A stretch of DNA of 64,000 nucleotides. It comes from a candidate division WWE3 bacterium (GTDB taxonomy: Bacteria > Patescibacteriota > WWE3 > UBA101185 > UBA10185). Under the pieces are notes generated by a model that saw only the letters and a list, made by a program, of their open reading frames with translations, did no database searches and was not told the DNA's origin. The position numbers were made by a program, and so were the translations under genes. Below are positions 241 to 16,797 of this stretch, one piece after another; the first letter of the stretch is position 1, and the number at the start of each line of letters is the position of its first letter. Location: positions 366,773 to 430,772 of the forward strand of contig JBPOHV010000001.1 of assembly GCA_052035175.1 (NCBI GenBank), in the 5' to 3' direction.

Positions 241-1392
241 ATGAAGATCTTATACGCTTTGAACTCGTCTCAGCCGGGAGGAATGGAGCACCATGTTTTA
301 GACTTGGTAGAAAGTATGGTCAACTTGGGGCATACAGTTTATGTATGGTTGCCAGAGGGTCCTCTAGTTTCAGACTTCGAAAAGTTGGGTGCAAAAGTGA
401 CATTAAAATACATAAAATATGAATGCGATTTTGCATATATTAGTGCTTTGATCAAATTTATAAAAGAAAATAAAGTAGAAGTTGTACATGGTCACGAAAT
501 AAAAGCAGTCATGAATGCATTGTTTGCTGCATGGCTTGCCGGTGTAAAAGCTAGAGTAGGGCATACACATACGCCAATTTCAGAATGGAATTTGACAGGT
601 CTATTAGGTATAAAAAAGTATGTGAATTTATTTTTTTATTTTATTTTTATAAACCTGTTTGTTTCATGCGAGATTGCATTGACTCCATCACGCAAAGAAA
701 TAAAAAAGAAAGAGGGTATTAGTACAAATAAGTTAGTAGTAATTCCCAATTGTGTGCGTATGTCTAAATTTGCATATTCATCTGAGCAACGTAGTTCTTT
801 TCGTAATGAAATTTTGACTAAATATGAAATGCCGTTGGATGCGATTGTTTTTGGCAATGTCAGTAGGATCAGCGAAGAAAAAGGGCATAAGATTTTGATT
901 GATGCTTTTGATGATTTTTGTAGTCGTGTAGCACATTCTGATAAGTATTATTTGCTGCTAGCTGGAGGTGGGCCTTTGGAAGCTGATTTAAAAGCGTATA
1001 TAAAAACCAAAAAGTTTTGTGCTCGTATGATCGTTACAGGTAGATTTGAAGCAGAACTTAATGCCAAATTTTTTGCTACATTCGATTTGTTTGTGCATCC
1101 GACCTTGGCAGAAGGGTTTGGAATAGTTATCATTGAGGCAATGTCTGCATGTATTCCTATAATTTGTTCAGATTTACCAGTACTCAAAGAAGTAGCTCAA
1201 GATCATGTGATGTATTTCAAAAAAGGAGATTCTCAAGATCTAAGTGAGAAATTATTTGACTTTACTATGCATGAACAGTTGTATAAATCAAAAACATCCT
1301 CAGCATATGATTTGGTAAAAAATAACTATACTTTAGAGTTGTTTGCACAAAATTATCAAAATTTGTATAAAAGACTTTTGACAAACCAATGA
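241..1392 (+). CDS. GT4-family glycosyltransferase
   Basis: C-terminal motif EGFGIVIIEAMSACIPIICSDLP, typical of GT-B GT1/GT4 retaining glycosyltransferases. N-terminal Glyco_trans_4-like region (VVHGHE). Internal hydrophobic insertion KKYVNLFFYFIFINLF. Confidence 0.8.
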   Translation: MKILYALNSSQPGGMEHHVLDLVESMVNLGHTVYVWLPEGPLVSDFEKLGAKVTLKYIKYECDFAYISALIKFIKENKVEVVHGHEIKAVMNALFAAWLAGVKARVGHTHTPISEWNLTGLLGIKKYVNLFFYFIFINLFVSCEIALTPSRKEIKKKEGISTNKLVVIPNCVRMSKFAYSSEQRSSFRNEILTKYEMPLDAIVFGNVSRISEEKGHKILIDAFDDFCSRVAHSDKYYLLLAGGGPLEADLKAYIKTKKFCARMIVTGRFEAELNAKFFATFDLFVHPTLAEGFGIVIIEAMSACIPIICSDLPVLKEVAQDHVMYFKKGDSQDLSEKLFDFTMHEQLYKSKTSSAYDLVKNNYTLELFAQNYQNLYKRLLTNQ

Positions 1393-4232
1393 TTGAACTT
1401 GTTGCACTTTTAGGAATCTTTATATGCTCATTATTTCTGATATATTACAGGTTTGAACTTTCAGTATATATTTTATTGGTTTTATCACTTTTATTACACA
1501 AAGAACTTTTTAGTTTTTATAGTTGGGATCTTTTGCCAATACGCGCGTTCATGGGAGCTTTAATTTGCGCGGGTGGTCTTAGAACATTCAATTATCTTAA
1601 AACTCATGATTTTAAGCCAACTAGTTTATTTCAATTTTTCAAAGACCCTTTTATTTTCTTTGTTTCTTTGCTTTGGTTAGTGCGTGGGGTTTCATTAGTA
1701 TTTTCAATGAACTTAAAGGCTAGTATTTTGTTATTTGTATTTTTCACTGGCGTTTGTACGTTATTGATTTGGTTTTATTTGGCTTTTAAAACAAAAAAAG
1801 ATGCAGTTTTGAAATACTTACACTTTTATGTGTTTCTAGTTTTTTTGCTCACGTTATTTGGTTATTTTCAAGTTTTTTTGTATTACAAGACCGGCATAAT
1901 AATTGGCGCGTTATGGAATATCCCAGATAATTTGCCACGCGTAGGTTCAACTTTTTGGGATGTAAATCATTATGCTGCATTATTGGGGACATTATTGCCA
2001 GTTGTAACAATATTCACAGTTACATCTAAATCTTGGAAAATGCGTTTGTTTAATGGTTTTATGGCTGTATCGATGTTAGGCGCTTACCTTTTGACTAATT
2101 CACGTTCTGGCTGGATTATAGGAGCTTTTTCATTTTTATTCTTTGTTATTTTCTTAGTAGTTAAAAAGATAGGGTACAAAGGTATCGCCTATGTTTTTAT
2201 TACTCTATTGCTCATAGCATTGCCTTTTTTGTATCAATACAATCAAAAGGATTCAAAATTTCGTGCAGATATACGTCAGTATTTTCATTATCGGTTAGAT
2301 TCTTTTGATTCACATTTCCTGTTGTTAACAGGTGCTTATCAAGTTTTTGAAGAGTATCCAATATTAGGTGGCGGTTATGGTAGTTTTTTTGAACACTTTA
2401 GTAAAACTAAAATTGCACCTGAATATTTTGGAAGAGACCCTGCTGCTTTAAATACGCGCGTACCTGCTCACACAATTTGGGGTGAACTTTTGGCTGATAC
2501 TGGAATCATAGGTTTAAATGCATTCATCCTTTTATTTGGAGTTTTAATAATAGTTCCATTTTTTGTTGGTTGGACAGAAAAAAGCTTTGAACTGTCTTTA
2601 CTACCCTTTGCTCTAGCTTCGACTATTATAGGTTGGCTGATTGGCGGTATCTTTTATTCGTATAATTCAGAATTTTTTTGGCTAGTTATAAGTTTGTTTT
2701 TTGTTTACGCTGTGTCATCACTGCAAGTTCATAATAAATGGAGATCTTTATTTGATTTCGTATTTACAAATGCAAAACTGCCGTTGATTGTTTTGTCGAC
2801 TCTGGCTGCTTTGCTTATATTTGTAGGGTTGGGAAGTAATCAGCTGATTCCTTGGGATGAAGCTATTTATGCAAAAGTTGCAAAAAATATGGTAACTAGT
2901 GGTGATTGGTTATCATTGCATTGGGATATGAAAGCATTGTGGTTTGAGAAACCACCATTATATATGTGGTTATCAGCTATGCTTATGTCGGTTTTTGGAT
3001 TTAGTTCTATAGTACCTAGATTACCATCGGCTATCTTTGGATTTTTATTGATAATTGTTACATATAAGTTTGCTTCAAAAATGTTCAATCGCACTGCTGG
3101 CTATATAGCTGGTCTTAGCCTATTAACAAATGTAGCAATACTTTATTATTCGCGTGCTTCTATGCTAGATGTGACTGCAACTTTCTTTATGACATCTGCG
3201 CTCTTTTTTTATGCAAAAGCAAGAAGTAAGTATTTATTTACAGATTCAACAAAAGAAGCTTTAAGTAACTGGGTATTAGCAGGACTATTTATAGGCATTG
3301 GAGCAATGGTAAAGGGAGTAGTTGGTTTATTGCCTTTGTTATGTATTGGTGTATTTGAAATATTTTTATTAGTAACTGAGCAAATTGATCTGAAAAGTTT
3401 TATAAAGAATTATTTTGTAATGTTCTCTGCAAGTTTGCTTACGTTTTTACCATGGCACCTATATATGTACTATTTGTACGGACCAATCTTTTTACAGAAT
3501 TATATTGGTTACCATGTGCTTGATCGTGCCACAAAATCGATTGAGGATAAAGGAAAACCACTATGGTGGTATTTGGAGGTTATGAAAGTTTTCATGCGCG
3601 TCTGGTTTGTGGCTTTGATACCTGCTGGTGTATACGCTACTTTTAAGTGTATTAAGTTATCAAATAAACATGTATTTTTAAGTGTTTCATCACTTGTTAT
3701 TTTACTTTTCTTTTCTGTTGCAACTTCAAAATTAGTTTGGTATATAATTCCAATTTACCCGCTGTTAGGTATTATTATTGGTGAGTTTGTAGATTGGGTG
3801 TACACCAAACTTACTTGGGTTTATGAATTTTCTGAGTATCGTTTGGTAAAAATACTTGCTTTGTATTTTATAACAGTTTTTGTTTTGAGTTATTTATTTT
3901 TTGTTAGAAGTATGGTTTATACTTCTGATACTACAGGTTCTCAAGCCAGATTGCTTATGGCAAAAGATGCGTTCTTTGGTATGGAACAAAAAGTTTTTGT
4001 CGATCGTATAGAGTTGCCTTTAGTTATGTATTATACAGATGGTCCATTTGAAATTTATGATATCGAAGTTACTAAAGGTAGATACCCATTTATTTCTCCT
4101 ACGGAAAAGTTAGTACTACTCACAAAGAAAGGCCGTTATTCTCCCACTTTACCAAATAGAAATTCTGAGGCAATTGTATATAAAGAAGATGGTGACTACG
4201 TGCTTTGGTATTTTAAGCCAGAGAGTTTATAG
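1389..4232 (+). CDS. Polytopic membrane protein: O-antigen ligase/polymerase-like domain fused to a GT-C (PMT/ArnT-like) glycosyltransferase domain
   Basis: 947 aa with many TM helices. N-terminal half has a Wzy_C-like signature (LTNSRSGWIIGAF). C-terminal half has LIPWDEAIYAKVAKNMVTSGDWLSLHWDM...FEKPPLYMW, typical of ArnT/PMT GT39/GT83 enzymes. Start overlaps the stop of the upstream GT (ATGA). Confidence 0.65.
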   Translation: MIELVALLGIFICSLFLIYYRFELSVYILLVLSLLLHKELFSFYSWDLLPIRAFMGALICAGGLRTFNYLKTHDFKPTSLFQFFKDPFIFFVSLLWLVRGVSLVFSMNLKASILLFVFFTGVCTLLIWFYLAFKTKKDAVLKYLHFYVFLVFLLTLFGYFQVFLYYKTGIIIGALWNIPDNLPRVGSTFWDVNHYAALLGTLLPVVTIFTVTSKSWKMRLFNGFMAVSMLGAYLLTNSRSGWIIGAFSFLFFVIFLVVKKIGYKGIAYVFITLLLIALPFLYQYNQKDSKFRADIRQYFHYRLDSFDSHFLLLTGAYQVFEEYPILGGGYGSFFEHFSKTKIAPEYFGRDPAALNTRVPAHTIWGELLADTGIIGLNAFILLFGVLIIVPFFVGWTEKSFELSLLPFALASTIIGWLIGGIFYSYNSEFFWLVISLFFVYAVSSLQVHNKWRSLFDFVFTNAKLPLIVLSTLAALLIFVGLGSNQLIPWDEAIYAKVAKNMVTSGDWLSLHWDMKALWFEKPPLYMWLSAMLMSVFGFSSIVPRLPSAIFGFLLIIVTYKFASKMFNRTAGYIAGLSLLTNVAILYYSRASMLDVTATFFMTSALFFYAKARSKYLFTDSTKEALSNWVLAGLFIGIGAMVKGVVGLLPLLCIGVFEIFLLVTEQIDLKSFIKNYFVMFSASLLTFLPWHLYMYYLYGPIFLQNYIGYHVLDRATKSIEDKGKPLWWYLEVMKVFMRVWFVALIPAGVYATFKCIKLSNKHVFLSVSSLVILLFFSVATSKLVWYIIPIYPLLGIIIGEFVDWVYTKLTWVYEFSEYRLVKILALYFITVFVLSYLFFVRSMVYTSDTTGSQARLLMAKDAFFGMEQKVFVDRIELPLVMYYTDGPFEIYDIEVTKGRYPFISPTEKLVLLTKKGRYSPTLPNRNSEAIVYKEDGDYVLWYFKPESL

Positions 4233-4234
4233 CA

Positions 4235-5104
4235 ATGACGCTAGAAGAAAAAACACAGAAATTTTTGGACTTTCTCAAATTCGAGTTTCCTCTTGATTAC
4301 GAAAATATATTGGCATCTTTGTCTCAGACTTATCCTACAACTTTCAGAATCAATACACTCAAATATGAACCAGATCATGTTTTGTCTTTATTGGAAGACG
4401 ATGGTTTTGTTGTCGAGAACGCAGATTTAGAAAATAGCTATATCGTGAAGTCAAATCGATTTGAAAAGCCGCTGTCATATAGTTATTTGTTTGAGAAACA
4501 ATATGTATATATTCAAAGCTTATCTAGCATGCTACCAGTTAGTTCATTGGCACCGCAGAAAGGTGAGCATATTTTAGATTTATGCGCTGCGCCTGGTAGT
4601 AAAACTTTGCAGATTGCATCACTTACAAATAATGCTGCGAGTGTTGTAGCCGTTGACAACAACAAAACCCGCTTTTACAGATTACAAGCTTTATTGAACT
4701 CATATGACGCAAGAAATATTAGTTTTATATGTGCAAATGGTGCACTTTTATACAAAACTCACCCAGCATATCAAGGCTATTTTGATAGAGTATTGCTAGA
4801 TGCGCCGTGTTCTAATGAAGGTAACATAACTTTTACAGATATGCGCACTGTTAATTATTGGCACCCACGTTTACCCAAAAAGTTATCAAAGCTACAAAAG
4901 AGTTTGCTTTATTCTGCATTAATGCTTTTGCGTCCAGGAGGGACTATGGTTTATTCGACTTGCACTTTGAATACACTAGAAAATGAAGAGGTTGTAAACT
5001 GGGCATTGGACAAGTTCAAAAATCTAAGTCTAGTCGAATCCAAAAGGATTTTACCTAACGGCTTATACAAAGGTTTTTATTATGCGAAGTTAATACTGAT
5101 ATGA
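4235..5104 (+). CDS. RsmB/Sun (NOL1/NOP2) family rRNA cytosine-C5 methyltransferase
   Basis: SAM-binding motif DLCAAPGSKT and catalytic-region motif LLDAPCSNEG. Confidence 0.75.
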   Translation: MTLEEKTQKFLDFLKFEFPLDYENILASLSQTYPTTFRINTLKYEPDHVLSLLEDDGFVVENADLENSYIVKSNRFEKPLSYSYLFEKQYVYIQSLSSMLPVSSLAPQKGEHILDLCAAPGSKTLQIASLTNNAASVVAVDNNKTRFYRLQALLNSYDARNISFICANGALLYKTHPAYQGYFDRVLLDAPCSNEGNITFTDMRTVNYWHPRLPKKLSKLQKSLLYSALMLLRPGGTMVYSTCTLNTLENEEVVNWALDKFKNLSLVESKRILPNGLYKGFYYAKLILI

Positions 5105-5114
5105 CATCTCTGTA

Positions 5115-5206
5115 GATATGTCTACCTGCGGTATAGCACTATGTGCTAACCTTGCTGGTATAGCACTATTTGCTTATCATACTGATATGTCTACCTGCGG
5201 TATAAT
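5115..5206 (+). promoter_or_regulatory. Promoter region of the ABC-F gene with the same GGTATAGCACTAT motif and direct repeats
   Basis: GATATGTCTACCTGCGGTATA duplicated (5115-5135 and 5183-5203). GGTATAGCACTAT duplicated (5130-5142 and 5157-5169). TATAAT at 5201-5206. Confidence 0.5.
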
Positions 5207-5212
5207 CAGCGC

Positions 5213-6655
5213 ATGATAATAGTCAAAGGGCTTGAAATAAAGTTTGGCGAGCGCTTAATTTTACAAAATGCCAACTTTTTCTTGGGAAACGGGAAGAAGA
5301 TAGGTGTTGTGGGTAAAAATGGATGTGGTAAGTCGACTTTATTTAGAGTTCTTACTAACAATGAAATATATACAGATGGTCATATAGACATTCAACACGA
5401 AATTATTGGGTATATTCCTCAAGAATTTACGTTTCCTGATGAAATGGTGGGGGAGTATTTAGAAAAGTTTTTAGAATCTACGTGGGATTTTTACAAAATA
5501 GAAATGTATGCCGAACAAGTAGAGTTCACGAACTTTGATATATATCAGCCGCTTAACACGCTAAGCGAAGGTCAGAAAATGAAAGTTAAGTTAATAGAAA
5601 CAATGTTGAAAGATGCGACGACACTTTTCATTGATGAACCAACAAATCATTTGGATATCGAAGGTATTATGTGGTTTGAAAATTATGTCAAAAGTCTAAA
5701 TACTACTGTCGTAATGATTTCACATGATAGATCATTTCTAAACCATACCGTAGATGAAATCTGGGAAATTGATAAATTTGAACTTTTTCAATTTGTAGGA
5801 GATTACGATAATTACAAAGAACAAAAGCTTAAGCTTATAGATAAGTGGAATCAAGAATACGTAATGTTTCTCAAGAAAAAAGCACAGCTAGAAGTGTTGC
5901 TTGAGAATGTTCGTAAAATTAAAGATGGTAAAAAGCGTGGTCGAGCAGTACAAGCTGCAAAAGCAAGAATCGATCGAGAATTGAATTCTGATAAAAAAGA
6001 AAAGTATGTATCCAAAAAAGTTAGCTTGATGGAGTTCAATACTGAAGCTCATCAAAAGAAATTGATGCTTGGTGTAGAGAATTTAGAAAAGAAATATGGT
6101 GAAAAATTAATATTCAAAGACTTAAGTTTTGAACTGCGTGGTACAGATAAGCTCTGGTTGCTTGGTCCAAATGGTGCGGGTAAATCTACTTTGGTAAAAA
6201 TAATTATGGGAGAAGAGCCTATTACAAACGGAAACGTGAAGCTTGGTTACAATGTGAAAATCGGGTATTTCTCTCAAGTGCAAAAGCAGTTGAATCTAGA
6301 AAATGTCGCTCTCGAAGAATTTATTGCAAAGACCAAGTGTTTTCATGCAGAAGCTTATGGTTATCTCAAAAAGTTTTTATTTGATAAAAATGCTTTGAAA
6401 AAGCAAGTAAAGTTTTTTAGCCCTGGCGAACGCGCGAGATTTGCTTTTTCTATTTTTGCTTACTTTGACTATGATTTATTGATTTTGGACGAACCTGATA
6501 ATCATTTGGATATCGAGACAAAAGAGGTAATGGAAACAAGCTTGCGCGAATTTAAAGGAGCAGTATTACTAGTTTCGCACGATAGATATTTTGTAGAAAG
6601 TGTAGGTGTTGATCAAGTACTGAATCTTAAAGAAGGTGTGATTAGTTACTATTGA
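5213..6655 (+). CDS. ABC-F family ATPase (two tandem ABC domains, no TMD; EttA/Uup-like translation factor)
   Basis: Two Walker A motifs (GKNGCGKSTL and GPNGAGKSTL), LSEGQK/FSPGER signature motifs, and a charged linker between the domains. Confidence 0.85.
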   Translation: MIIVKGLEIKFGERLILQNANFFLGNGKKIGVVGKNGCGKSTLFRVLTNNEIYTDGHIDIQHEIIGYIPQEFTFPDEMVGEYLEKFLESTWDFYKIEMYAEQVEFTNFDIYQPLNTLSEGQKMKVKLIETMLKDATTLFIDEPTNHLDIEGIMWFENYVKSLNTTVVMISHDRSFLNHTVDEIWEIDKFELFQFVGDYDNYKEQKLKLIDKWNQEYVMFLKKKAQLEVLLENVRKIKDGKKRGRAVQAAKARIDRELNSDKKEKYVSKKVSLMEFNTEAHQKKLMLGVENLEKKYGEKLIFKDLSFELRGTDKLWLLGPNGAGKSTLVKIIMGEEPITNGNVKLGYNVKIGYFSQVQKQLNLENVALEEFIAKTKCFHAEAYGYLKKFLFDKNALKKQVKFFSPGERARFAFSIFAYFDYDLLILDEPDNHLDIETKEVMETSLREFKGAVLLVSHDRYFVESVGVDQVLNLKEGVISYY

Positions 6656-6679
6656 TGCTTCTTCTGTTAAAATTTTCTT

Positions 6680-7102
6680 ATGTCTACTTTTAAAAGGTTT
6701 GGAGAGCAGCATAAAAGAGAAAATCCATATGACGGCATTGTTTTACTAGTTGGTGTCGATTTAAAAAACAAAGACTATTTTGATATTACATATAAACATG
6801 CCGAGGCATTGGGCAAACATGATTTATATAGTAATGATAGGAATCCAGATGAAACAGAAACTGCAGATGTTCTTAGAGAGAAGGTAATACAAACATATGA
6901 AGAGCTTGGTATATACTCTAGGCAAAATAATAGGTGGCATCAGATAACAGCTCAAAGACACGATGATATAGCAGCTTGGTTAATTATTTTTAATAAGATC
7001 AGCCTACCTCCATTGGTAAACATAAATACATATACAGGACTTACTGCTGCTGTTAATTATATTGACCCTACTTTGAGAAAAAGACCTCCGTGGTTAAGAT
7101 AA
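6680..7102 (+). CDS. hypothetical protein
   Basis: 140-aa ORF filling the gap between ABC-F and the flippase. No recognisable motif. Confidence 0.4.
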   Translation: MSTFKRFGEQHKRENPYDGIVLLVGVDLKNKDYFDITYKHAEALGKHDLYSNDRNPDETETADVLREKVIQTYEELGIYSRQNNRWHQITAQRHDDIAAWLIIFNKISLPPLVNINTYTGLTAAVNYIDPTLRKRPPWLR

Positions 7103-7105
7103 GGT

Positions 7106-8302
7106 TTAGGCTTTGTTGCCAATATACGATAATGTTATACACACAGCACTCACTGCAGCAATCAATTGAGCCCAGGCAATTCCATATAGTCCATACATGT
7201 TGCCTAATACAAACGTACATATAAGCACTACAGTTAATTTGGTAAGACTGATTTTCAATAACTTATCAGTTTTATCTTCGACAAAAAAATAATTTTCCAT
7301 AAAAGAATGTATAGCTGTTAGTGCGTAAGCAAAAATTAATACACTTACTATTCCAATACTTTGATCAAATTTGTCCCCGAAAGCGATTTGTAAAAAGAAG
7401 TGAGACACAAATATTGCTAACACTGCTAATATCAAAATCAGCCCCGCAATAATTCCAGTTTCTATATAGTCGTATTTTAATTTATCTTTTTTGCGCAAAG
7501 AATTTTTTGGCAGTAAGACTGTAAATACAGAAATAGACGCAAGCGAAAAGATCGCAGACATTTTGTCAGCAATCGAATAAATACCTACAGAAAAATTCCC
7601 ACCAAAATATTTTGCGCTTATATTTGAAATATTAGATAAACTTTCGCTGATCATTTGAGATGTACCAGCAGGAAATGCTAATAATAGATAACTTCTGACA
7701 TTAGAAAAATTAAATCTGAGTTTTTTATATTCAGGTGGTAAAAACCAAATTAACGCGATACTTGGTAATACTGATAAAGCAAATACAGCAATATACGTAG
7801 TTGCCTGTACATTAGAAATCAAATTAAGAAAAATGAATAATCCAAATGTACCTTTTATAATAGCTGGAATAAAATTTGTAATGATAAGCAACCAGTACTT
7901 CTCGTATTTTTGAAATATTGAATACAGCGAGAAATTCAGCATATAAAAGAAAACTCCGAGTATAAATATTAAAAGAGTTTTTAAATCAAAAGAATAAACT
8001 TTCGAAATGATTAAAGATATGGGTAGCGTAATTAGAGATAAGAGCACTTTTGTAGAGAAGAATGCAGAGATTAGTTCTTGAGAAGTTTCTATTTTTAAGG
8101 CTTTTGTTACGTATATATTATTTGTTCCAAAGTCGGTGAACTTGGCCACAAAAACCAATAAAGACGTGACGAGCATGTAAAATCCAAATTCGTTTACAGG
8201 CAATTTTGCAGCCCCAGCTGATATGAGTATTAAAGCAAGCAGTGAATTGACCAAGTGCCCAATTCCTACAAAAGCGATAATAGGTAATGACTTTTTTATC
8301 AT
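7106..8302 (-). CDS. Polysaccharide biosynthesis flippase (Wzx/MOP superfamily-like)
   Basis: 398 aa, about 12 predicted TM helices. Sits in the glycosyltransferase cluster. Composition typical of oligosaccharide-unit flippases. Confidence 0.65.
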   Translation of the reverse strand: MIKKSLPIIAFVGIGHLVNSLLALILISAGAAKLPVNEFGFYMLVTSLLVFVAKFTDFGTNNIYVTKALKIETSQELISAFFSTKVLLSLITLPISLIISKVYSFDLKTLLIFILGVFFYMLNFSLYSIFQKYEKYWLLIITNFIPAIIKGTFGLFIFLNLISNVQATTYIAVFALSVLPSIALIWFLPPEYKKLRFNFSNVRSYLLLAFPAGTSQMISESLSNISNISAKYFGGNFSVGIYSIADKMSAIFSLASISVFTVLLPKNSLRKKDKLKYDYIETGIIAGLILILAVLAIFVSHFFLQIAFGDKFDQSIGIVSVLIFAYALTAIHSFMENYFFVEDKTDKLLKISLTKLTVVLICTFVLGNMYGLYGIAWAQLIAAVSAVCITLSYIGNKA

Positions 8303-8338: not shown

Positions 8339-9499
8339 ATGTCAAGACGCATTGGTATAGATGCTAGGTTTTATGGTAAAGCTGGGCCAGGAAGATACAC
8401 AAAGAACATAGTTCAGCATTTGGAAAAAGTTGATACACAAAACGAATATCTAATCTTTTTAACAAAAGAAGGGTATGACATGTATACACCCAAAAATGCT
8501 AATTTTCACAAAGTGCTAGCAGATTATCATTGGTATTCATTTGAAGAACAATTTGGGTTTCTTTGGTTATTATTAAAAAGCAAGCTAGATCTGTATTATG
8601 TTCCACATTTTAATATTCCAGTGTTATACCCAGGAAAAATAATAACAGCTATCCCAGATATGACGATGCATAAATTTAGCACAGAGAAAGGTACTACTCT
8701 GCCTATTTGGTATTTTAGACTTAAAAAATACGTATACAAAGCTGTGTTTTGGTGGGCAGTATTTAGATCGCAAAAAGTTATCGTGCCTTCGCAAACTGTT
8801 TTGAATGACTTTCTGTCTAATCTAAATTTTTCAAATGATAAATATGTTTTGGTCTTAGAAGGAGTTGATCCAGATTTGTTACATATTGATGTAGATGTAG
8901 AAAAAGTTTTGGCTAAGTATCGAGTTACAAAACCCTTTATTTTATATGTAAGTAGTATGTATGAGCATAAGAATGTGCCAGGCTTGATAGAAATGTTTAA
9001 GCTATTGGTTGAAAAATATGGTTATAAAGGTAATTTTGTACTCGTAAGTAAAAAAGATAAATTTTCACAAAGAGTTTATCAACAAATAAAAGCTATGGGA
9101 TATCAAGATAAAATCTTATTTCCTGCATTTAGAGTTGATTCAGATCAAGATATTGTAGTTTCTGATAGCGAAGTTGTTGCGTTTCGTAGATCTGCAGATT
9201 TGTATGTGTTCGCATCTTTTACCGAAGGTTTTAGTTTGACTGCTTTAGAAGGTATGGTAGAAGGCTTACCAGCAGTGCTTTCTGATATTGATTGTCATCG
9301 AGAAATTTATGAAGATTCCGTTTTGTATTGTGATCCTCATAATCCAAGTGATATAGCAGAAAAAGTGAATACTATGCTGACAGATAAATCATTGTTTGAT
9401 GAATATAAGAAAAGAGGGTATGAGCAAATAAAGAAATACGATTGGCTAAAAACTGCAGAGATCACTTTAGATGTTTTTAAGTCATCATTGGAGATTTAA
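8339..9499 (+). CDS. GT4-family glycosyltransferase
   Basis: Motif FTEGFSLTALEGMVEGLPAVLSD (E-x7-E GT4 signature). Confidence 0.8.
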   Translation: MSRRIGIDARFYGKAGPGRYTKNIVQHLEKVDTQNEYLIFLTKEGYDMYTPKNANFHKVLADYHWYSFEEQFGFLWLLLKSKLDLYYVPHFNIPVLYPGKIITAIPDMTMHKFSTEKGTTLPIWYFRLKKYVYKAVFWWAVFRSQKVIVPSQTVLNDFLSNLNFSNDKYVLVLEGVDPDLLHIDVDVEKVLAKYRVTKPFILYVSSMYEHKNVPGLIEMFKLLVEKYGYKGNFVLVSKKDKFSQRVYQQIKAMGYQDKILFPAFRVDSDQDIVVSDSEVVAFRRSADLYVFASFTEGFSLTALEGMVEGLPAVLSDIDCHREIYEDSVLYCDPHNPSDIAEKVNTMLTDKSLFDEYKKRGYEQIKKYDWLKTAEITLDVFKSSLEI

Positions 9500-10623
9500 T
9501 CTGTAGTAAAAACTTCTAAAAACTTTTTTGCTGTTTGGTTCCATGAATACTTTTTTGCGATTTCTTGTGCACGTTGTAAAGCCATTGGTTGTGACAAAGC
9601 TTCATGAATGCCTTGGCTAATATTGTTGATATCAAGTGGATTTACATAAACAGGATATTCTTCGCCAATTTCATTGAACGCAGGAATATTAGAAACAATA
9701 GCTTTTGTTCCGCAAGAAATCGCTTCTAACAAGGGCAAACCAAAACCTTCATCTAAAGAACAATTTATAAAAGCTTCAGCGCCGCTATACAGTGCAGGTC
9801 TGTCTTCATCGGGAATACGCCCAATATAAATTACTTTGTCTTTATTAGCGTTCATGCTATTTACAGACTCATCATATTCCCAGCCAAGCTTCCCAGCGAT
9901 TACCAATTTTATCTCAGGTATCGATTTAACTGCTTCGACCATTCGAGGAACATTTTTACGTGGTTGAATCGTTGATAAAAAGAATAAGTATTTGCCGTTG
10001 ATATTATACTTGTTTCGTATAGTATCGATTTCACTTTCATTTCGTTTATAAAATTCTTCACCCACAGCTTCTGGAATTACATCTATTTTTGATTTATTTA
10101 TAAAAAGATAATTAATTTCAGTTTTCACTTTGTTAGAAGGTACTATTATTTTGTGAGATGTAAGTAATGTCCACCACAATACAAATGGGTGAAGTAATTT
10201 ATGTATAGGTTTTTTGGAATACTGGTTATTTATTTTGTATTCAAATCCATGAAGCATGCACACAGTTTTTTGAAAAAACCTAGAGATTGAAGGTACTGTG
10301 TGAAATGGAGTAAAAAAAACATCGACTCGGTTAGTCATCAATTCTAGTAACAAACTTATTTGTGTCCATGAAATTAACTTTGGTAAGACTTTGTATGTAA
10401 TATTATTTTTGTTTGTAAATAATTTGGTGATTAAGTCTTTATTTGGTTCATTTTCAAAATACACAATATAGTCATTAGTTTTGTCTATCTCAGAAAGTTT
10501 TGTATACAAGTGAAGTGCAAATTGCTCTGGGCCAGCTAGTCCTGAGCGTGTCAACATTTGTCCGTTTAAACCTATTTTCATGCTTTGATTATATCTTTTA
10601 ATTATATCTTTGTATCGATGCAT
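9496..10623 (-). CDS. GT4-family glycosyltransferase
   Basis: Motif LDEGFGLPLLEAISCGTKAIVSN. The likely true start is the internal MKIGLNGQ (near 10581), which would shorten the N-terminus by 14 aa. Confidence 0.8.
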   Translation of the reverse strand: MHRYKDIIKRYNQSMKIGLNGQMLTRSGLAGPEQFALHLYTKLSEIDKTNDYIVYFENEPNKDLITKLFTNKNNITYKVLPKLISWTQISLLLELMTNRVDVFFTPFHTVPSISRFFQKTVCMLHGFEYKINNQYSKKPIHKLLHPFVLWWTLLTSHKIIVPSNKVKTEINYLFINKSKIDVIPEAVGEEFYKRNESEIDTIRNKYNINGKYLFFLSTIQPRKNVPRMVEAVKSIPEIKLVIAGKLGWEYDESVNSMNANKDKVIYIGRIPDEDRPALYSGAEAFINCSLDEGFGLPLLEAISCGTKAIVSNIPAFNEIGEEYPVYVNPLDINNISQGIHEALSQPMALQRAQEIAKKYSWNQTAKKFLEVFTTD

Positions 10624-10914: not shown

Positions 10915-12024
10915 TTGCGCTTAGCTATTGTTTGTGATGATCTTATTCAAAAAGGTGGGCAAGAACGCTTGGTTATAGAAGCTTGTAAGATTTGGTCTAA
11001 TCCTGTTTTATATACAAGCGTTGCATCTGAGTATTGGAAAGCCAAATGTAAAAATGAAGGAATAACTCTGAAAGTTTCATTTTTGCAAAAATTTCCATTT
11101 ATTCAAAACTTGTATAGGTATTATTCATTATTTCTATTACATGTACTTGCAATTGAATCTTTTGATTTATCCAAATACGATGTGGTTTTAAGTATTTCAT
11201 CTAGGTATGCACACCATGCAAAAACAAAGCCTGGTGCTGTACATATATGCTATATGAATTCTCCTGGACGCATGTTTTGGGAGCCTTTTACTTATTTTGA
11301 AAACGAGAAAGTCTTTCGTACTAATTTTGCAAAAAGTTTGTTGCACCCATTTTTGTCTTATTTTCGAATGATCGACTATATAGCTGCGCAGAAAGTTGAC
11401 TATTTTGTAGCTAATGCAAAAACACCTTATGCTCGTATAAAAAAGTATTACCACAGAGACGCAGCTATTATTTATCCTCCTGTTGATATTTCATCTGATG
11501 CGCTTGTTAACGCTAAATCTGAAAGGTATTTTTTGATCATAAGCAGGTTGGTTGCTTGGAAACATATAGATATAGCCATAGGTGCTTGCAATAAGCTTGG
11601 TATAAGGTTGAAAATTTTGGGTGATGGCCCTGATAAATCTCGGTTAATGAGTATGGCTGGTAAAACTATTGAATTTCTGGGTTATGTAAGTGATGAAAAA
11701 AAGTTTGAAATCGTATCAAAATGTAGTGCACTTATAAATACACAAGCTGAAGATTTTGGTTTGGTACCTGTTGAAGTTATGTCTCACGGAAAACCTGTTA
11801 TCGCTTATGCAAAAGGTGGTGCACTCGAAACAGTATTACCTGGTAAGACTGGAGATTTTTTTTATTCTCAAACAGTCGATGCATTAATAGCCTGTTTAAA
11901 AGATTTTGATGAGACGGCTTATTCACCAAGCGATTGTCGAGCTCAAGCAGAGATTTTTCACAAAAAAGTCTTTGTGTCTAAGCTAAAACGTTTCGTAGAA
12001 AAAAAAGTACTTTTTGAGCAATAA
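10915..12024 (+). CDS. GT4-family glycosyltransferase
   Basis: TTG start. Begins MRLAIVCDDL and carries the motif EDFGLVPVEVMSHGKPVIA. Confidence 0.75.
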   Translation: MRLAIVCDDLIQKGGQERLVIEACKIWSNPVLYTSVASEYWKAKCKNEGITLKVSFLQKFPFIQNLYRYYSLFLLHVLAIESFDLSKYDVVLSISSRYAHHAKTKPGAVHICYMNSPGRMFWEPFTYFENEKVFRTNFAKSLLHPFLSYFRMIDYIAAQKVDYFVANAKTPYARIKKYYHRDAAIIYPPVDISSDALVNAKSERYFLIISRLVAWKHIDIAIGACNKLGIRLKILGDGPDKSRLMSMAGKTIEFLGYVSDEKKFEIVSKCSALINTQAEDFGLVPVEVMSHGKPVIAYAKGGALETVLPGKTGDFFYSQTVDALIACLKDFDETAYSPSDCRAQAEIFHKKVFVSKLKRFVEKKVLFEQ

Positions 12025-12700
12025 GGTTGAGTATGATGTATACTTAGGGCAAATTTCTCTTGATATGAGTTTTTACGACTTGGGTAAAAGATTAATAGAT
12101 ATTTTGGGTGGTATTGTAGGACTTATTATTTTTGCGCCGTTTATGGCCCTCATAGCTTTTTGGATTAAACTTGTTTCACCAGAAGGTCCAGTTTTCGCAG
12201 ATATACCTTATAGAGTTGGTAAAGATGGTAATTTATTTAGAATGTATAAATTTCGATCTATGATTCCTAATGCACAGAATTGGCTTAATGAACATCCAGA
12301 ATGGCTTGAAAAATATAAAGCAAATAGTTATAAGCTTGATCCTGATCCTCGACTTATAAAAGGTGCAAAATTTATACGCAAAAGTAGTGTCGACGAGCTG
12401 CCTCAGTTTTTAAATGTTTTATTAGGTAATATGAGTTTGGTTGGTCCACGTGCATATATGGATTTTGAATTACAGCAACAATTAGAGAAGTTTCCTGATG
12501 CAAAAGCAAATGTTGATCTTTTAATACGCGTAAAACCAGGTATTACAGGTCCTTGGCAGGTAGGTGGGAGATCGGAGATTAGTTTTGTAGAGAGAGTAAA
12601 AATTGATGCAGACTATGCACAGCGCCGCTCTTTGTTGTATGACATTATGATACTGCTAAAAACCCCATTTGCTGTTTTATCGCAAAAAGGGTCGTATTAG
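12014..12700 (+). CDS. Initiating phosphoglycosyl transferase (bacterial sugar transferase family, PglC/WbaP C-terminal domain type)
   Basis: One N-terminal TM helix followed by DELPQFLNVLLGNMSLVGPRA, the hallmark of the Bac_transf family. TTG start overlapping the upstream GT. Confidence 0.8.
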   Translation: MSNKVEYDVYLGQISLDMSFYDLGKRLIDILGGIVGLIIFAPFMALIAFWIKLVSPEGPVFADIPYRVGKDGNLFRMYKFRSMIPNAQNWLNEHPEWLEKYKANSYKLDPDPRLIKGAKFIRKSSVDELPQFLNVLLGNMSLVGPRAYMDFELQQQLEKFPDAKANVDLLIRVKPGITGPWQVGGRSEISFVERVKIDADYAQRRSLLYDIMILLKTPFAVLSQKGSY

Positions 12701-12734
12701 CCTTAAGGCGTATTTATGTAGTATATTAGATATT

Positions 12735-14702
12735 ATGCAAAACGAACCAATAAAAAATAATTTTAATAAGGATTTGAATATGAAATTTAATAAAGATATA
12801 AACCTTAAGTCAAAACCAAATAATTTGGTAAAAGGCTTGGGCGTCACAGGAGTTATATTATTTGTACTTTTATTTGTTTTTGGTCTTGTTATGTATCAGT
12901 TTATTGTACGCCCAGCTTTTGCTTTGATGACGGTTACAAACGAGCTTAAAAAAGATTCACGAGATCTTGTAGATGCGTTTGGATCTAGAGATTTGGTTAG
13001 ACTTGGTGAAGTTATAGATGAAACTCAGTCAGATTTAGAAAAAGTCCGCCGTGAGCGCGATGCAAAGTTTGGTTGGGCAAAAGATGTAAAAGCTTTTAAA
13101 TTAAATGAATTTTATTCCGATTCTGATCGATTTATAAATGCAGGTAATTATGCTTTGGCAGTTATTACAGAAATGTCAAAAGTTATCACGCCTTTTGCAG
13201 ATGCAGCAGGTTTGAAAGTCGACCCAAGTCAAGCACCTCCGTCTACTGAGGGTGGGCTTATGGAAGCATTTCAAACTTGGGTTTCTTTGATGCCTCAAGT
13301 AGCAAATAATATGGATGGCGTTATAGCACTTGTTCAGAAGGTTGGCGAAGAGCTAGAGCCAGTAAATGTTGATAAATATCCAAAAGAGTTTCGTGGCATT
13401 CGCGTACGTGAGAATATCTCTTTGGCAAAAAATGTGTTGACTCAGTCAAAAGATTACGCTCCTGATATAAAACAAGCTTTGACAATTGTTCCAGAACTTT
13501 TGGGTGTAGGTTCTACACAAGATAAACGTTATCTGATAATTTTCCAAAATGATAAAGAAATACGCCCAACAGGTGGTTTTTGGACTTATTTCGCAACATT
13601 TAAATTAAGAAACGGTTTGTTGCAATCTGACTTCACTTCATACAATTTTTATACTCTTGATGAGATTATAAATATTATTGACGCAACCTATGATTTCCCC
13701 GATGCACCAAAAGCATATGCTAAATATCTAAAAGTTGAGCGTTGGTTTGCGAGAGATTCAAATTCTTCTCCAGATCTACCAACTTCACTTGAAAATTTGT
13801 CATTTTATTATAATTTAGCTGCAAAGCTTGACCCTGCTACTATAAAACCAGTTGATGGCATCATTACTATCGATACGACAGTTTTACGAGAATTGTTGGA
13901 AATCACTGGCCCTGCAACTGTTAATGGTGTGACGTACACTAGTGAAAATGCAGTCTTGGAACTCGAAAAGATTGCTTCTTTAGCTTTGGCAGAGCAGGCA
14001 AACCGCAAGAGAGTTTTGGGAGACTTGATGGAATCAATGTTGATCAATGTTTTTGAGTCAGACAAAAACCTTTGGTCAAAAATCATAGAAAAGGGTGTAG
14101 ATTTGGCGGCACGCAAACATATTACAGGCTATAGCTACGATATTAATGCTCAAAAGCTCTTGGAGAAATATAATTTGGCAGGTCGCATTTGGGATACTGT
14201 TCCTGGTGACTATTCTATGGTTGTACAAACAAACCTTGGTGGCGATAAAACGAACTGGTTTGTTACTAAACAAGTCGATCATTCATTGGATCAAAAAGAT
14301 GGTAAGTGGATGGATACAGTTAAGATTACGTATAACTATAAACAACCTTCTGCAGACTTTGGGCCTTTTATAAAAAGATTTAGAGATTGGGTCAGAGTTT
14401 ATGCTCCAGCCAATTCACAATTGATTTCGGTTGAAGGTTCTGAAGATACTGAAGTTAATATGCAGGATCAAGAACGAAACAAAGTTTGGTTTTCAGGCTA
14501 TTTAGAATTGGGTCCAGATGAAACTAAATCTATTACTTTCAAGTACTATTTACCAGATGGCATCATCAAAGATGACAAATATTTGTTGGCTTTACAAAAG
14601 CAATCTGGCATTCTTGAAGAAAAGCATACTATTAGTATAAACGGTAAACTAGTAAAAGAACTGATGTTATCAAAAGATACTAATGTATCGATCGATTTGT
14701 GA
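12735..14702 (+). CDS. Large membrane-anchored extracytoplasmic protein (resembles DUF4012-type proteins of cell-envelope polysaccharide loci)
   Basis: Single N-terminal TM (GVTGVILFVLLFVFGLVMYQFIV), then about 600 aa of soluble domain. Start moved to ATG 12735, downstream of the overlapping upstream gene. The DUF4012 resemblance is from recollection and unverified. Confidence 0.45.
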   Translation: MQNEPIKNNFNKDLNMKFNKDINLKSKPNNLVKGLGVTGVILFVLLFVFGLVMYQFIVRPAFALMTVTNELKKDSRDLVDAFGSRDLVRLGEVIDETQSDLEKVRRERDAKFGWAKDVKAFKLNEFYSDSDRFINAGNYALAVITEMSKVITPFADAAGLKVDPSQAPPSTEGGLMEAFQTWVSLMPQVANNMDGVIALVQKVGEELEPVNVDKYPKEFRGIRVRENISLAKNVLTQSKDYAPDIKQALTIVPELLGVGSTQDKRYLIIFQNDKEIRPTGGFWTYFATFKLRNGLLQSDFTSYNFYTLDEIINIIDATYDFPDAPKAYAKYLKVERWFARDSNSSPDLPTSLENLSFYYNLAAKLDPATIKPVDGIITIDTTVLRELLEITGPATVNGVTYTSENAVLELEKIASLALAEQANRKRVLGDLMESMLINVFESDKNLWSKIIEKGVDLAARKHITGYSYDINAQKLLEKYNLAGRIWDTVPGDYSMVVQTNLGGDKTNWFVTKQVDHSLDQKDGKWMDTVKITYNYKQPSADFGPFIKRFRDWVRVYAPANSQLISVEGSEDTEVNMQDQERNKVWFSGYLELGPDETKSITFKYYLPDGIIKDDKYLLALQKQSGILEEKHTISINGKLVKELMLSKDTNVSIDL

Positions 14703-15345: not shown

Positions 15346-16797
15346 ATGAGAATGCCTGTTATTAATAAAATAAAAAAACCTTATTTGTTTTTGAGCACCT
15401 TTTTATTACTACTTATATTTCTGGGTGTGTATTTGATCTTACCTGATCAAGTAAATATGTTAATGGCCAATCGTTATGAAGGCTATACCAAGATTGGTAA
15501 TGTCCAAATGCCTATTCTTGTTGAACGTAAAAACTATTTAGAAACTACAGAAGGTGAGTTAGTGCTTGCATCTTATGAATACACTTATACAGGCACACGA
15601 CCAACCCGCCCAAATCTCAAAGTTGTAATACCACAAAAGCTAGCTATTAGTAGACATGGAGATTATGGCATTTTAAGCGATACTTCAAATATATGGATGT
15701 ATAACTATTCTACAAAAGAAAAATCCTTGCTCGCTTTTCCAACCAATCTAAAGGTATACGATAATGTATTACGCATTACTTCATCTAAACTATCTGATTC
15801 ATCGGCGTTAGTTGTTTTTGAAGGTCCATATAATGCAGAGCGTACAGGCTCGCTATATGAGGGTTATGTTTTGGATTTTTCAACAAAACAATTTACAAGC
15901 TTATCAAGTATTGATTGTCCTGGTATTTACTGCTTACCTTCTGCAATGCCTTTAAATGATCAATATGCAATACTTAAGCGTGGTTATGGCGATGGTTGTG
16001 GGGGTGGGGGATCTTTGGCTTTGTTCAATTTGAAGACTTACCAAGAAACTTTTATCACAGATTATGATAATTCTTGTGTTTCTACTGATAGTGCTTTTGT
16101 AGACATTTTTAACGGCAAGTTACTGATGAACACAACAAAATTTATTGCGATGAGTGAATATGATGGTGAAGATAAACTTTCCAGTATTTATAGTCTCGAC
16201 CCATTTACCAAAGAAAAACAAGTACTTTTGACTGACGATCAAATTCCTGCGGATGCTAGGTCAATTAGAGTGGTTGACAACACTACTCTTATATTAAATA
16301 AATCGTATTCTGATGAGTACTATGTATACGATACGGCTGTTGGCAGTCTGATAGAAACTACATTTGCTAAAACTCCATATCAGACTTCAGAAATGCAGGC
16401 GCCATACCTTACATTGGATACAGATATAGAGCTTGGTGAGTTTGTTGGTGCCGAAAAACTTACAAGAGGTCAAGCTGGTCACGATGGTATAAAGCTGAAA
16501 TATTCTAGCAATAAAGAAATAGAGTATATATCACCAGATCGTTGGTCAGAAATGTATTTAACACAAAATCCAGTACCTGAAGCACTCAAAGAATGTGGTT
16601 TTTATTCTTTTTATTTCTCAAATGTTCAGTTTGAAAAGAATAGTATTAGTTGGGTGGTAAAGCCATTATTCAACACTAGCCGGTTGAAGGTAGGTTGTAG
16701 TGCTCCTCAGTATGACTTTTTGTCAGTTATAGCAGATTTGAACACTGGGGATGTTTATTATAAGGTAGGTCATCCCAAAGCTAAGACTGTAAATTAG
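15346..16797 (+). CDS. hypothetical secreted/membrane-anchored protein (possible beta-propeller-like)
   Basis: N-terminal TM/signal (LFLSTFLLLLIFLGVYLIL), Gly-rich GDGCGGGG segment, beta-rich composition. Confidence 0.45.
   Translation: MRMPVINKIKKPYLFLSTFLLLLIFLGVYLILPDQVNMLMANRYEGYTKIGNVQMPILVERKNYLETTEGELVLASYEYTYTGTRPTRPNLKVVIPQKLAISRHGDYGILSDTSNIWMYNYSTKEKSLLAFPTNLKVYDNVLRITSSKLSDSSALVVFEGPYNAERTGSLYEGYVLDFSTKQFTSLSSIDCPGIYCLPSAMPLNDQYAILKRGYGDGCGGGGSLALFNLKTYQETFITDYDNSCVSTDSAFVDIFNGKLLMNTTKFIAMSEYDGEDKLSSIYSLDPFTKEKQVLLTDDQIPADARSIRVVDNTTLILNKSYSDEYYVYDTAVGSLIETTFAKTPYQTSEMQAPYLTLDTDIELGEFVGAEKLTRGQAGHDGIKLKYSSNKEIEYISPDRWSEMYLTQNPVPEALKECGFYSFYFSNVQFEKNSISWVVKPLFNTSRLKVGCSAPQYDFLSVIADLNTGDVYYKVGHPKAKTVN

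Follow-up and report, generated by a model that had tools for sequence, protein, structure and literature searches.

The fusion gene and its conserved neighbourhood

The window, i.e. the whole stretch of 64,000 nucleotides that was analysed, carries at positions 1389..4232 of the forward strand a complete ORF of 947 aa with an ATG start. As an earlier note on this DNA had claimed, this single ORF encodes a bimodular membrane glycosyltransferase, which consists of a WaaL-like N-terminal half and an ArnT-like C-terminal half. The start of the fusion gene overlaps the stop of a GT4 glycosyltransferase gene (241..1392, + strand) in the sequence ATGA at 1389-1392, so that the two genes are translationally coupled, and the next gene begins 2 nt past the TAG stop of the fusion gene. 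The upstream GT4 gene is a conserved neighbour and was found within 3 kb of the fusion gene in 68 of 80 loci. Further downstream, the window encodes a Wzx-type flippase (Polysacc_synt, about 11 TM segments; 7106..8302, − strand), three GT4 glycosyltransferases of the conserved cluster (8339..9499, + strand; 9496..10623, − strand; 10915..12024, + strand), a Bac_transf initiating phosphoglycosyltransferase (PGT; 12014..12700, + strand; 179 bits), which is conserved in 51 loci, and a DUF4012 protein (12669..14702, + strand). In other WWE3 genomes the Wzx gene directly adjoins the fusion gene (61/80 loci), and the conserved order of the cluster is GT4-fusion-Wzx-GT4x3-PGT. The products of the Bac_transf family are diphosphate-linked, and the enzyme of this cluster makes the polyprenyl-PP-linked first sugar.

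The DUF4012 protein is a conserved cluster member with one N-terminal TM segment and an external domain of about 600 aa. It was considered as a Wzz-type chain-length regulator; its single TM segment, its many invariant polar residues and the lack of a PDB relative speak neither for nor against this role. No Wzz/PCP-type chain-length regulator was detected in the window. WWE3 and Patescibacteria are generally held to lack LPS. A GT121 enzyme in the strict sense acts on lipid A-core in an LPS-producing organism, but no LPS genes were found in the 64-kb window, which does carry peptidoglycan genes and an LCP ligase. In the closed RAAC2_WWE3_1 chromosome the cluster additionally carries rmlABCD and resembles the slg clusters of Gram-positive bacteria, which likewise comprise rml genes, a PGT, glycosyltransferases and a methyltransferase (PMC2943079).

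A missed stop codon or a frameshift in the region 2700-2900, joining two separate genes through a sequencing or assembly error, had been named as a possible source of the fusion. Inspection of this junction revealed no stop and an unchanged frame. Moreover, among 80 loci drawn from different species-level genomes, 78 have an ORF that is uninterrupted over both halves, including that of the closed RAAC2_WWE3_1 chromosome, and the two exceptions (L063 and L077) have the appearance of frameshifted MAG contigs. A continuous frame was also found in more than 120 database clusters. Clustering at 50% identity gives about 35-40 clusters in which the fusion is kept intact, and it is likewise intact in at least 95 species genomes. 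Its relatives belong to WWE3/Patescibacteria. Since the fused frame is conserved across independent assemblies, an artefact is extremely improbable, and the fusion is a genuine, conserved WWE3 protein. The domain combination, which had seemed unfamiliar, is present in databases; descriptions of a Wzy_C and PMT_2 fusion, or of an O-antigen ligase in Patescibacteria, were not found in the literature searched. Public annotations of the fusion name the GT39/ArnT-like half only, and the ligase module has therefore been overlooked.

Architecture and conserved residues of the two modules

The fusion protein comprises about 25 TM helices followed by a C-terminal external domain. Based on helix order and loop charges, the TM helices are predicted to be arranged as 12 TM in the N-terminal and 13 TM in the C-terminal module. 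In this arrangement every invariant polar residue lies on the external face, so that both sets of conserved loops would face outward. Pfam annotation placed both Wzy_C and PMT_2 above cut-off, and the motifs quoted for each half were located in the protein.

The N-terminal module (residues 1-443; 1389..2717, + strand) has a WaaL/Wzy_C-type (GT-C_B) fold with 12 TM helices, and both of its termini are predicted to be cytoplasmic. Wzy_C (PF04932) matched residues 225-379 with 49.3 bits against a cut-off of 31.7 and covered profile positions 2-148 of 149. In accordance with Wzy_C and the CAZy clan GT-C1, the conserved residues of this 12-TM architecture are found in a long external loop towards its C-terminus. 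The NSRSGW motif (residues 237-242; 2097..2114, + strand) lies at the outer end of TM8 and contains R239 (nt 2103-2105), which is invariant in 66/66 family members and aligns to R191 of Cupriavidus metallidurans WaaL (CmWaaL) and R215 of E. coli WaaL. This first Arg binds the Und-PP phosphate in WaaL (PMC10920833). TM9 and TM10 are connected by a large external loop (residues 286-362; 2244..2474, + strand), which holds the invariant residues H309 and H361 and is followed by an H-x10-G-x-x-G motif. H361 (nt 2469-2471) corresponds to CmWaaL H313 and E. coli WaaL H338, a conserved residue with a proposed role in acceptor activation. His is characteristic of O-ligases (GT121) here, and Asp or Glu takes its place in SEDS proteins and in the related inverting polymerases (PMC10920833). 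The column of the second Und-PP-binding Arg of GT121 (CmWaaL R265, E. coli WaaL R288) is occupied by H309 (nt 2313-2315), a His that is invariant across the whole clade, and the N-terminal half is therefore not a canonical WaaL. Seven residues upstream of H309, R302 is invariant in the fusions and replaced by Asn in split-gene homologues.

Sequence similarity between the N-terminal half and WaaL is very low. Neither a phmmer search with the N-terminal half nor the full-length family profile (A1) matched WaaL among PDB sequences, and a relationship was detected at the profile level only (E 2e-5): a diverse profile of the N-terminal half (A2) aligned to CmWaaL (PDB 7TPG) at E 2.2e-5, pairing R239 with R191 and H361 with H313. 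Both matches were corroborated by alignment with E. coli WaaL. An hhalign comparison of profile A1 with E. coli WaaL as a lone sequence produced an alignment that made no sense and was discarded.

A short, K/R-rich, cytoplasmic linker (residues 444-463; 2718..2777, + strand), the length of which is 18-20 aa in 60 of 66 family members, leads into the C-terminal membrane module (residues 464-838; 2778..3902, + strand). This module has an ArnT/PMT_2-type (GT-C_A, GT83/GT39-like) fold of 13 TM helices and, as in ArnT, is followed by a C-terminal domain (residues 839-947; 3903..4229, + strand), which by its secondary structure is a soluble alpha/beta domain and is predicted to be external. PMT_2 matched residues 521-689 (58.5 bits, cut-off 26.1) and PMT residues 470-694 (47.2 bits, cut-off 22.7). 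The catalytic Asp of ArnT is said to lie in the first external loop, and a Lys together with an Arg reportedly binds phosphate (roles ascribed to Petrou et al. 2016). In the alignment with ArnT (PDB 5EZM, whose SEQRES numbering equals the published ArnT numbering + 3), D490 (nt 2856-2858) corresponds to D55, E520/K521 (nt 2946-2951) to E84/K85, D594 to D158 and R713 to R270, and these residues are invariant in 66/66 family members. D490 is part of the quoted motif WDEAIY (residues 489-494), and E520/K521 belong to FEKPPLYMW (residues 519-527). The ArnT equivalog NF009784 (NCBIfam) scored 103.7 bits against a cut-off of 567 bits; the C-terminal half is thus not an ArnT orthologue.

Several observations connect the two halves. 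Their divergence is correlated (r = 0.88), and the pTM of 0.84 obtained for a structure model of both modules suggests a defined packing between them. Furthermore, a Rosetta stone arrangement was found in L084/L085 and L083, where a free-standing Wzy_C gene is directly followed by a free-standing PMT_2 gene, with adjacency, order and glycan-cluster context as in the fusion. A second Wzy_C copy is present in the lineages L084 and L070-L075. The paralogues of these two-copy lineages carry the same catalytic residues as the N-terminal half, and the residues therefore cannot tell a ligase from a polymerase. WWE3 genomes also hold free-standing PMT_2 paralogues, e.g. in L011 at 5066-6436.

GT83/GT39-type GT-C enzymes use monophosphate-linked single sugars (PMC10920833, Table 1). 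A polyprenyl-phosphate sugar synthase (GtrB/ArnC/DPM1-type GT2) is encoded neither in the window nor in the conserved cluster, so that a polyprenyl-P-sugar donor for the C-terminal half is unsupported by the gene context. Homologues of E. coli ArnC occur in the flanks of 2 of 80 loci and not in the window. A 318-aa GT2 of the RAAC2 cluster was considered as the donor-making enzyme and rejected, as it is not GtrB/ArnC-like, and a GT2 in the split-gene locus L084 is a weak candidate.

Comparison with known systems

Compared with WaaL (CAZy GT121; CmWaaL, PDB 7TPG/7TPJ; E. coli WaaL), the fusion differs not only in the second phosphate-binding residue but also in the joining of the N-terminal half to a second GT-C module, and its acceptor cannot be lipid A-core because LPS genes are lacking in the window. 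In ArnT, the undecaprenyl-phosphate-L-Ara4N:lipid A transferase (CAZy GT83; PDB 5EZM/5F15), zinc is bound by H265 and H267, whereas the fusion has Y708 and V710 at the aligned positions; arn genes and lipid A genes were not seen in the window. In contrast to eukaryotic and actinobacterial PMTs, the C-terminal half has no MIR domain.

A likeness in logic is offered by WadA of Brucella and Mesorhizobium, a bimodular GT25 + GT121 O-antigen ligase whose appended glycosyltransferase adds the terminal core sugar that is then used by the ligase (PMC9938171; PMC10920833). In both proteins a WaaL-type ligase module is fused to a second glycosyltransferase of the same pathway. However, the partner in WadA is an N-terminal, soluble, cytoplasmic GT-A-type GT25 that uses a nucleotide sugar, which places the two active sites on opposite sides of the membrane, whereas the partner in the fusion is a C-terminal, PMT_2/ArnT-like integral-membrane GT-C, which would use a lipid-linked donor and have its active site, like that of the first module, facing outward. 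Phylum and acceptor also differ, and the likeness does not extend to membership in the WadA type.

By description, the fusion further resembles the Gram-positive three-component GT-C systems, monoderm and Wzx-dependent, in which a Wzy-like enzyme and then a GT-C on the outer face polymerise and attach the glycan; in Lactococcus lactis, WpsG is the flippase, WpsI the proposed polymerase and WpsJ the proposed GT-C transferase (PMC9574508). WpsI and WpsJ are encoded by separate genes and the fusion by one, and the Wps donors are monophosphate-linked (initiated by WpsA/B), in contrast to the Bac_transf PGT start in the fusion cluster. The Wzy_C-type O-oligosaccharyltransferases PglL and PilO, and WsaB/WsfB from the gene clusters for S-layer glycosylation, are likewise comparable by description, since they are Wzy_C proteins that move glycans from Und-PP to acceptors other than LPS; the fusion lacks the TPR or Wzy_C_2 extensions seen in PglL/PilO/WsaB-type enzymes.

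Proposed role and alternative explanations

The fusion probably catalyses the terminal transfer in a surface-glycan pathway that depends on Wzx and is conserved in WWE3, and it most likely allows two steps of surface-glycan assembly outside the membrane to be run in one enzyme; the coupling of two periplasmic-face steps suggested in the earlier note is in line with the evidence. According to the proposed mechanism, synthesis would begin inside the cell, where the Bac_transf enzyme, together with four or five GT4 glycosyltransferases, would assemble an undecaprenyl-diphosphate-linked oligosaccharide, which would then be flipped by Wzx. The WaaL-type module would hold the lipid diphosphate via R239, with H309 in place of the second Arg of WaaL, and would transfer the oligosaccharide en bloc to an acceptor hydroxyl activated by H361. 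The ArnT-type module, with D490/D594 as putative catalytic and K521/R713 as putative phosphate-binding residues, would take one sugar from a polyprenyl-monophosphate donor and attach it to that same acceptor or to the glycan. The preferred order of steps, modelled on WadA, is that the ArnT-like module would first put a primer sugar on a non-LPS acceptor and that the WaaL-like module would next ligate the glycan onto this sugar; candidate acceptors are surface or S-layer proteins and glycoconjugates of the membrane or wall.

It is also conceivable, if rather unlikely, that the N-terminal module serves the cluster as its Wzy-type repeat-unit polymerase and that the C-terminal GT-C transfers the finished chain from the lipid carrier to the final acceptor, as in the Lactococcus model with its Wzx, polymerase and glycan-attaching GT-C (PMC9574508). 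In a monoderm-type bacterium with peptidoglycan genes, an LCP ligase and no LPS genes in the window, a classical O-antigen ligase would be without a substrate. Moreover, neither the window nor most WWE3 loci have a Wzy_C-type module other than the N-terminal half beside the Wzx flippase, and this half would therefore be the polymerase if the glycan is polymerised; the second Wzy_C copy of some lineages would suit a polymerase/ligase pair. Against this reading stand the O-ligase signature of H361, where the inverting polymerases of the clan have Asp or Glu, and the start of the cluster with a Bac_transf enzyme, whose products are diphosphate-linked. GT83/GT39-type GT-C enzymes take monophosphate-linked single sugars (PMC10920833). 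The absence of a detectable Wzz/PCP-type regulator, DUF4012 having a single TM segment and no PDB relative, points in the same direction.

A chance fusion of two independent enzymes from different pathways, e.g. one that ligates a glycan and an ArnT-like one that modifies lipids or proteins in an unrelated process, with co-expression as the sole effect, is improbable. The cluster lacks a donor-synthesis gene for the C-terminal half, and the free-standing PMT_2 paralogues of WWE3 imply that such a module can act alone, but the fusion has stayed intact over the diverse clusters and species genomes counted above, the linker is constrained in length, the halves diverge in a correlated manner, and the split genes still lie next to each other within the same glycan cluster, their order unchanged. 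The packing between modules suggested by the structure model also argues against independence.

A further reading, for which the chances appear slim, is an as yet undescribed kind of self-contained 'prime-and-ligate' machine for protein O-glycosylation. A surface protein, such as an S-layer protein or a pilin, would receive one polyprenyl-phosphate-derived sugar on Ser/Thr from the PMT/ArnT-like module, and to this sugar the WaaL-like module would add the Wzx-flipped oligosaccharide en bloc. If so, a single polypeptide with 25 TM helices would unite the PMT logic of eukaryotes and actinobacteria with the en bloc logic of bacteria (WaaL/PglL), and the fusion would determine the principal surface glycoconjugate of WWE3.

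If the terminal-transfer reading is true, the fusion would join WadA as a second type of bifunctional WaaL-like ligase and, in the literature searched, would be the first with two GT-C modules (GT-C_B + GT-C_A) that use two classes of lipid-linked donors on the same membrane face. It would also be a natural system for substrate hand-over between membrane glycosyltransferases. The Patescibacteria (CPR) account for a large share of bacterial diversity, and their envelope glycoconjugates are essentially uncharacterised; in WWE3, the fusion gene marks a surface-glycan pathway that is conserved class-wide and points to its terminal enzyme.

The fusion gene and its conservation

The fusion is encoded by an ORF at 1389..4232 (+) with an ATG start and a product of 947 aa, in which a WaaL-like N half (residues 1-443) precedes an ArnT-like C half (residues 464-947). 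The start overlaps the stop codon of an upstream GT4 gene (ATGA at 1389-1392) and the TAG stop is separated by two bases from the next gene start, so that the fusion sits in a tightly packed operon. The two domains proposed in the earlier note exceeded their curated Pfam gathering scores, with Wzy_C at residues 225-379 (49.3 vs 31.7 bits) and PMT_2 at residues 521-689 (58.5 vs 26.1 bits), and PMT was additionally assigned to residues 470-694 (47.2 vs 22.7 bits). The motifs it had named were located as well, namely NSRSGW at residues 237-242, WDEAIY at 489-494 and FEKPPLYMW at 519-527, and its claim of a single polypeptide carrying both domains held, since the reading frame is unbroken across the junction DNA, with neither a stop nor a frame change. 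The ArnT equivalog model (NCBIfam) matched residues 465-848 at 103.7 bits, far under its cut-off of 567, and the C half is therefore regarded as ArnT-like and not as an ArnT orthologue.

A database search returned 324 relatives of the fusion, the best 120 of which have 894-1027 aa and 45-52% identity to the query at a coverage of 93-100%; according to precomputed annotation Wzy_C and PMT_2 are present in all 120, and PMT in all but two. One genome per GTDB species was scanned, which gave 95 genomes with a relative. The 80 loci that were kept are nearly all labeled WWE3, Patescibacteria or, by automation, 'Candidatus Saccharibacteria', and include the closed chromosome of WWE3 bacterium RAAC2_WWE3_1. 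Both halves lie in a single uninterrupted ORF in 78 of the 80 loci; the ORF is broken in L063 and L077, and these breaks look like MAG frameshifts. A comparison of 65 complete fusions showed equal conservation of the two halves (median identity 49.7% and 46.3%) and a correlated divergence (r = 0.88), and the linker between them is 18-20 residues long in 60 of 66 sequences. When 1.84 billion cluster representatives were searched exhaustively with HMMER, 295 matches lay below 1e-30, among them about 35-40 full-length fusions with identities down to roughly 29%. Free-standing homologues of each half ranked below the full-length fusions, and the divergent fusion clusters that carry a name are assigned to WWE3 or 'bacterium'. 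The fusion is thus real and not an artefact.

Predicted structure and conserved residues

An AlphaFold2 model generated from 36 family members reached a mean pLDDT of 86.3 and a pTM of 0.84, and Foldseek retrieved ArnT (E 1.5e-11) and WaaL 7TPG (E 3.6e-5) with it. Based on the helices of the model and the loop charges, the N half is predicted to contain 12 TM helices with both termini in the cytoplasm and an external loop of 77 residues between TM9 and TM10. The K/R-rich linker (residues 444-463) would be cytoplasmic, and the C half is predicted to comprise 13 TM helices followed by an external alpha/beta domain (residues 839-947). In this topology, which is based on the model and on homology, the invariant polar residues of the two modules would all be located at the outer face.

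In the N half, no PDB sequence was matched by the single sequence or by the first, full-length family profile. WaaL 7TPG was matched at E 2.2e-5 by a more diverse N-half profile (43 sequences, paralogues included), with a residue-level alignment in which R239 corresponds to WaaL R191, H361 to WaaL H313 and the invariant H309 to the column of WaaL R265. A MAFFT alignment with E. coli WaaL agreed with this mapping (R239 = R215, H309 = R288, H361 = H338) and contained a common H-x10-G-x-x-G motif. In a CAZy analysis, R191 and R265 of WaaL were assigned to Und-PP phosphate binding and H313 to acceptor activation, the His being replaced by Asp or Glu in related inverting polymerases and SEDS proteins (PMC10920833). 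The N half therefore has the ligase-type His, while its second Arg position is non-canonical. Due to the fact that paralogous Wzy_C copies carry the same conserved residues, these cannot separate a ligase from a polymerase.

The C half matched ArnT of Cupriavidus metallidurans (5EZM) with phmmer (E 1e-23) and with the family profile (E 3e-41). In published ArnT numbering, from which the 5EZM SEQRES numbering is offset by +3, D490 aligns with D55, Y494 with Y59, E520/K521 with E84/K85, D594 with D158 and R713 with R270, and all of these fusion residues are invariant in 66 of 66 sequences. In ArnT, D55 and D158 are reported to be catalytic, and K85 and R270 to bind the phosphate. In contrast, the zinc-binding His265 and His267 of ArnT correspond to Y708 and V710.

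Gene cluster, split counterparts and sugar donor

The neighbours of the fusion constitute a Wzx-dependent glycan cluster, with the GT4 gene (241..1392) upstream, a Polysacc_synt (Wzx-type) flippase (7106..8302, -), three further GT4 genes (between 8339 and 12024), a Bac_transf initiating phosphoglycosyltransferase (12014..12700) and a 677-aa DUF4012 protein (12669..14702, +). The order GT4-fusion-Wzx-GT4-Bac_transf-DUF4012 is kept across WWE3 loci, and in most relatives an additional GT4 gene immediately precedes the fusion. Between fusion and Wzx, three genes (4235..7102, +) code for an RsmB/F-type rRNA methyltransferase, an ABC-F ATPase and a protein of 140 aa without Pfam match; as they are absent from this position in 80 of 80 related loci, they represent a lineage-specific insertion into an otherwise conserved cluster.

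The RAAC2_WWE3_1 cluster (L011) additionally contains rmlD, rmlA, rmlB, rmlC and a 318-aa GT2 between Wzx and the GT4 genes (L011:14086-18371) as well as upstream genes for a methyltransferase and for a PMT_2 protein that stands alone, all absent from the window's cluster; for this strain, the additional genes suggest a glycan with rhamnose that may be methylated. The DUF4012 protein, with one N-terminal TM segment and an external domain of ~600 aa, is encoded directly after Bac_transf in about 50 WWE3 loci. It looks enzymatic because of its conservation (mean identity about 60%) and many invariant D/E/R/K/N residues, and no PDB sequence relative was found. The family is described as enriched in CPR and Gram-positives and occurs in a Bifidobacterium EPS cluster; the protein may act in a so far undefined step by which the glycan is attached or processed. 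Housekeeping genes make up the remainder of the window (dcw genes, PBP, two SEDS proteins, MurG, Uvr genes, aminoacyl-tRNA synthetases). Four ORFs of 320-483 aa lacked Pfam matches at the E-value cut-offs used (15346..16797, +; 18187..19149, -; 35338..36741, +; 41380..42783, -), the first alone with a predicted N-terminal TM segment.

A free-standing N-half homologue of 460 aa (P0184) was present on six metagenomic contigs. Two of its loci, from different samples (L084, L085), have the order GT4 - Wzy_C - PMT_2 (497 aa) - GT4 - second Wzy_C - Wzx, with identities to the window of 33% (Wzy_C to N half), 37% (PMT_2 to C half) and 40% (between the upstream GT4 proteins). Wzy_C and PMT_2 are separated by 55 nt that contain a hairpin and stop codons in all three frames, and the split is therefore genuine. 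The order Wzy_C then PMT recurred on a third contig (L083), and the fact that unfused modules remain neighbours speaks for a common pathway. Among the loci with a fusion, the most divergent ones have a second Wzy_C paralogue, 707-748 aa in length, after the fusion (L070:13044-15269, L073:13044-15164, L074:8500-10743, L075:2987-5215), with the invariant residues of the N half and a C-terminal extension of ~300 aa without Pfam match.

Judged by family membership, the donor of the C half would be a polyprenyl-monophosphate sugar. Neither the window nor the conserved cluster encodes a polyprenyl-phosphate sugar synthase, and the RAAC2 GT2 was rejected as not of that type. ArnC-like genes were found in the flanks of 2 of 80 loci. 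A 227-aa GT2 (L084:1150-1833, +), about 5 kb upstream of the separate Wzy_C and PMT_2 genes, weakly resembles PgfS, ArnC, dolichyl-P-hexose synthases/transferase and PpgS; it may produce the donor for the PMT_2 enzyme and has a homologue in the flank of L071 only.

Proposed activities of the fusion

The fusion is probably a bimodular outer-face transferase with two activities in one pathway, which supports the coupling of two periplasmic-face steps put forward in the earlier note. The N half would transfer the Wzx-flipped Und-PP-oligosaccharide en bloc to an acceptor hydroxyl by WaaL-type chemistry (R239/H309/H361), and the C half would transfer a single sugar from a polyprenyl-monophosphate donor by ArnT-type chemistry (D490/D594/K521/R713). 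In WadA, the one described bifunctional O-antigen ligase, an appended GT adds a sugar on which the ligase subsequently acts (PMC9938171; PMC10920833), and by this analogy the order 'prime, then ligate' is tentatively favoured over 'ligate, then decorate'. Lipid A-core cannot be the acceptor, and no LPS genes were seen in the window; the acceptor may instead be a protein of the surface or S-layer, or a glycoconjugate of the membrane or wall. In Gram-positive bacteria, Wzy_C-type O-oligosaccharyltransferases are found in S-layer glycosylation clusters (PMC2943079), which resemble the cluster of the fusion.

Alternatively, the N half may be a Wzy polymerase whose chain is attached by the C half, as proposed for WpsI and WpsJ of Lactococcus (PMC9574508). 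As this reading would expect, most WWE3 clusters have no Wzy_C module other than the N half, and the window has no further multi-TM Wzy-like ORF; however, the N half bears the ligase-type His, its fold matches WaaL much better than SEDS polymerases, Bac_transf initiation is of the diphosphate type and no recognisable chain-length regulator was found, and we consider this reading unlikely. A LytR-CpsA-Psr (LCP) family ligase gene (23622..24659, -) adjoins the dcw/PBP genes; the ligase could provide another way of linking Und-PP-bound glycans to peptidoglycan and thereby bears on ligation versus polymerisation by the N half.

Each module of the proposed bimodular transferase falls into a known GT-C family, and there is a precedent for a bifunctional ligase; no description of the WaaL-like/ArnT-like architecture was found in the literature searched, the coverage of which was incomplete. 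The public names of its relatives mention the GT39/ArnT-like part alone every time. A WaaL-like/ArnT-like fusion in a Wzx pathway, conserved across a whole Patescibacteria class, appears to be uncharacterised, and it is under-annotated in public databases.
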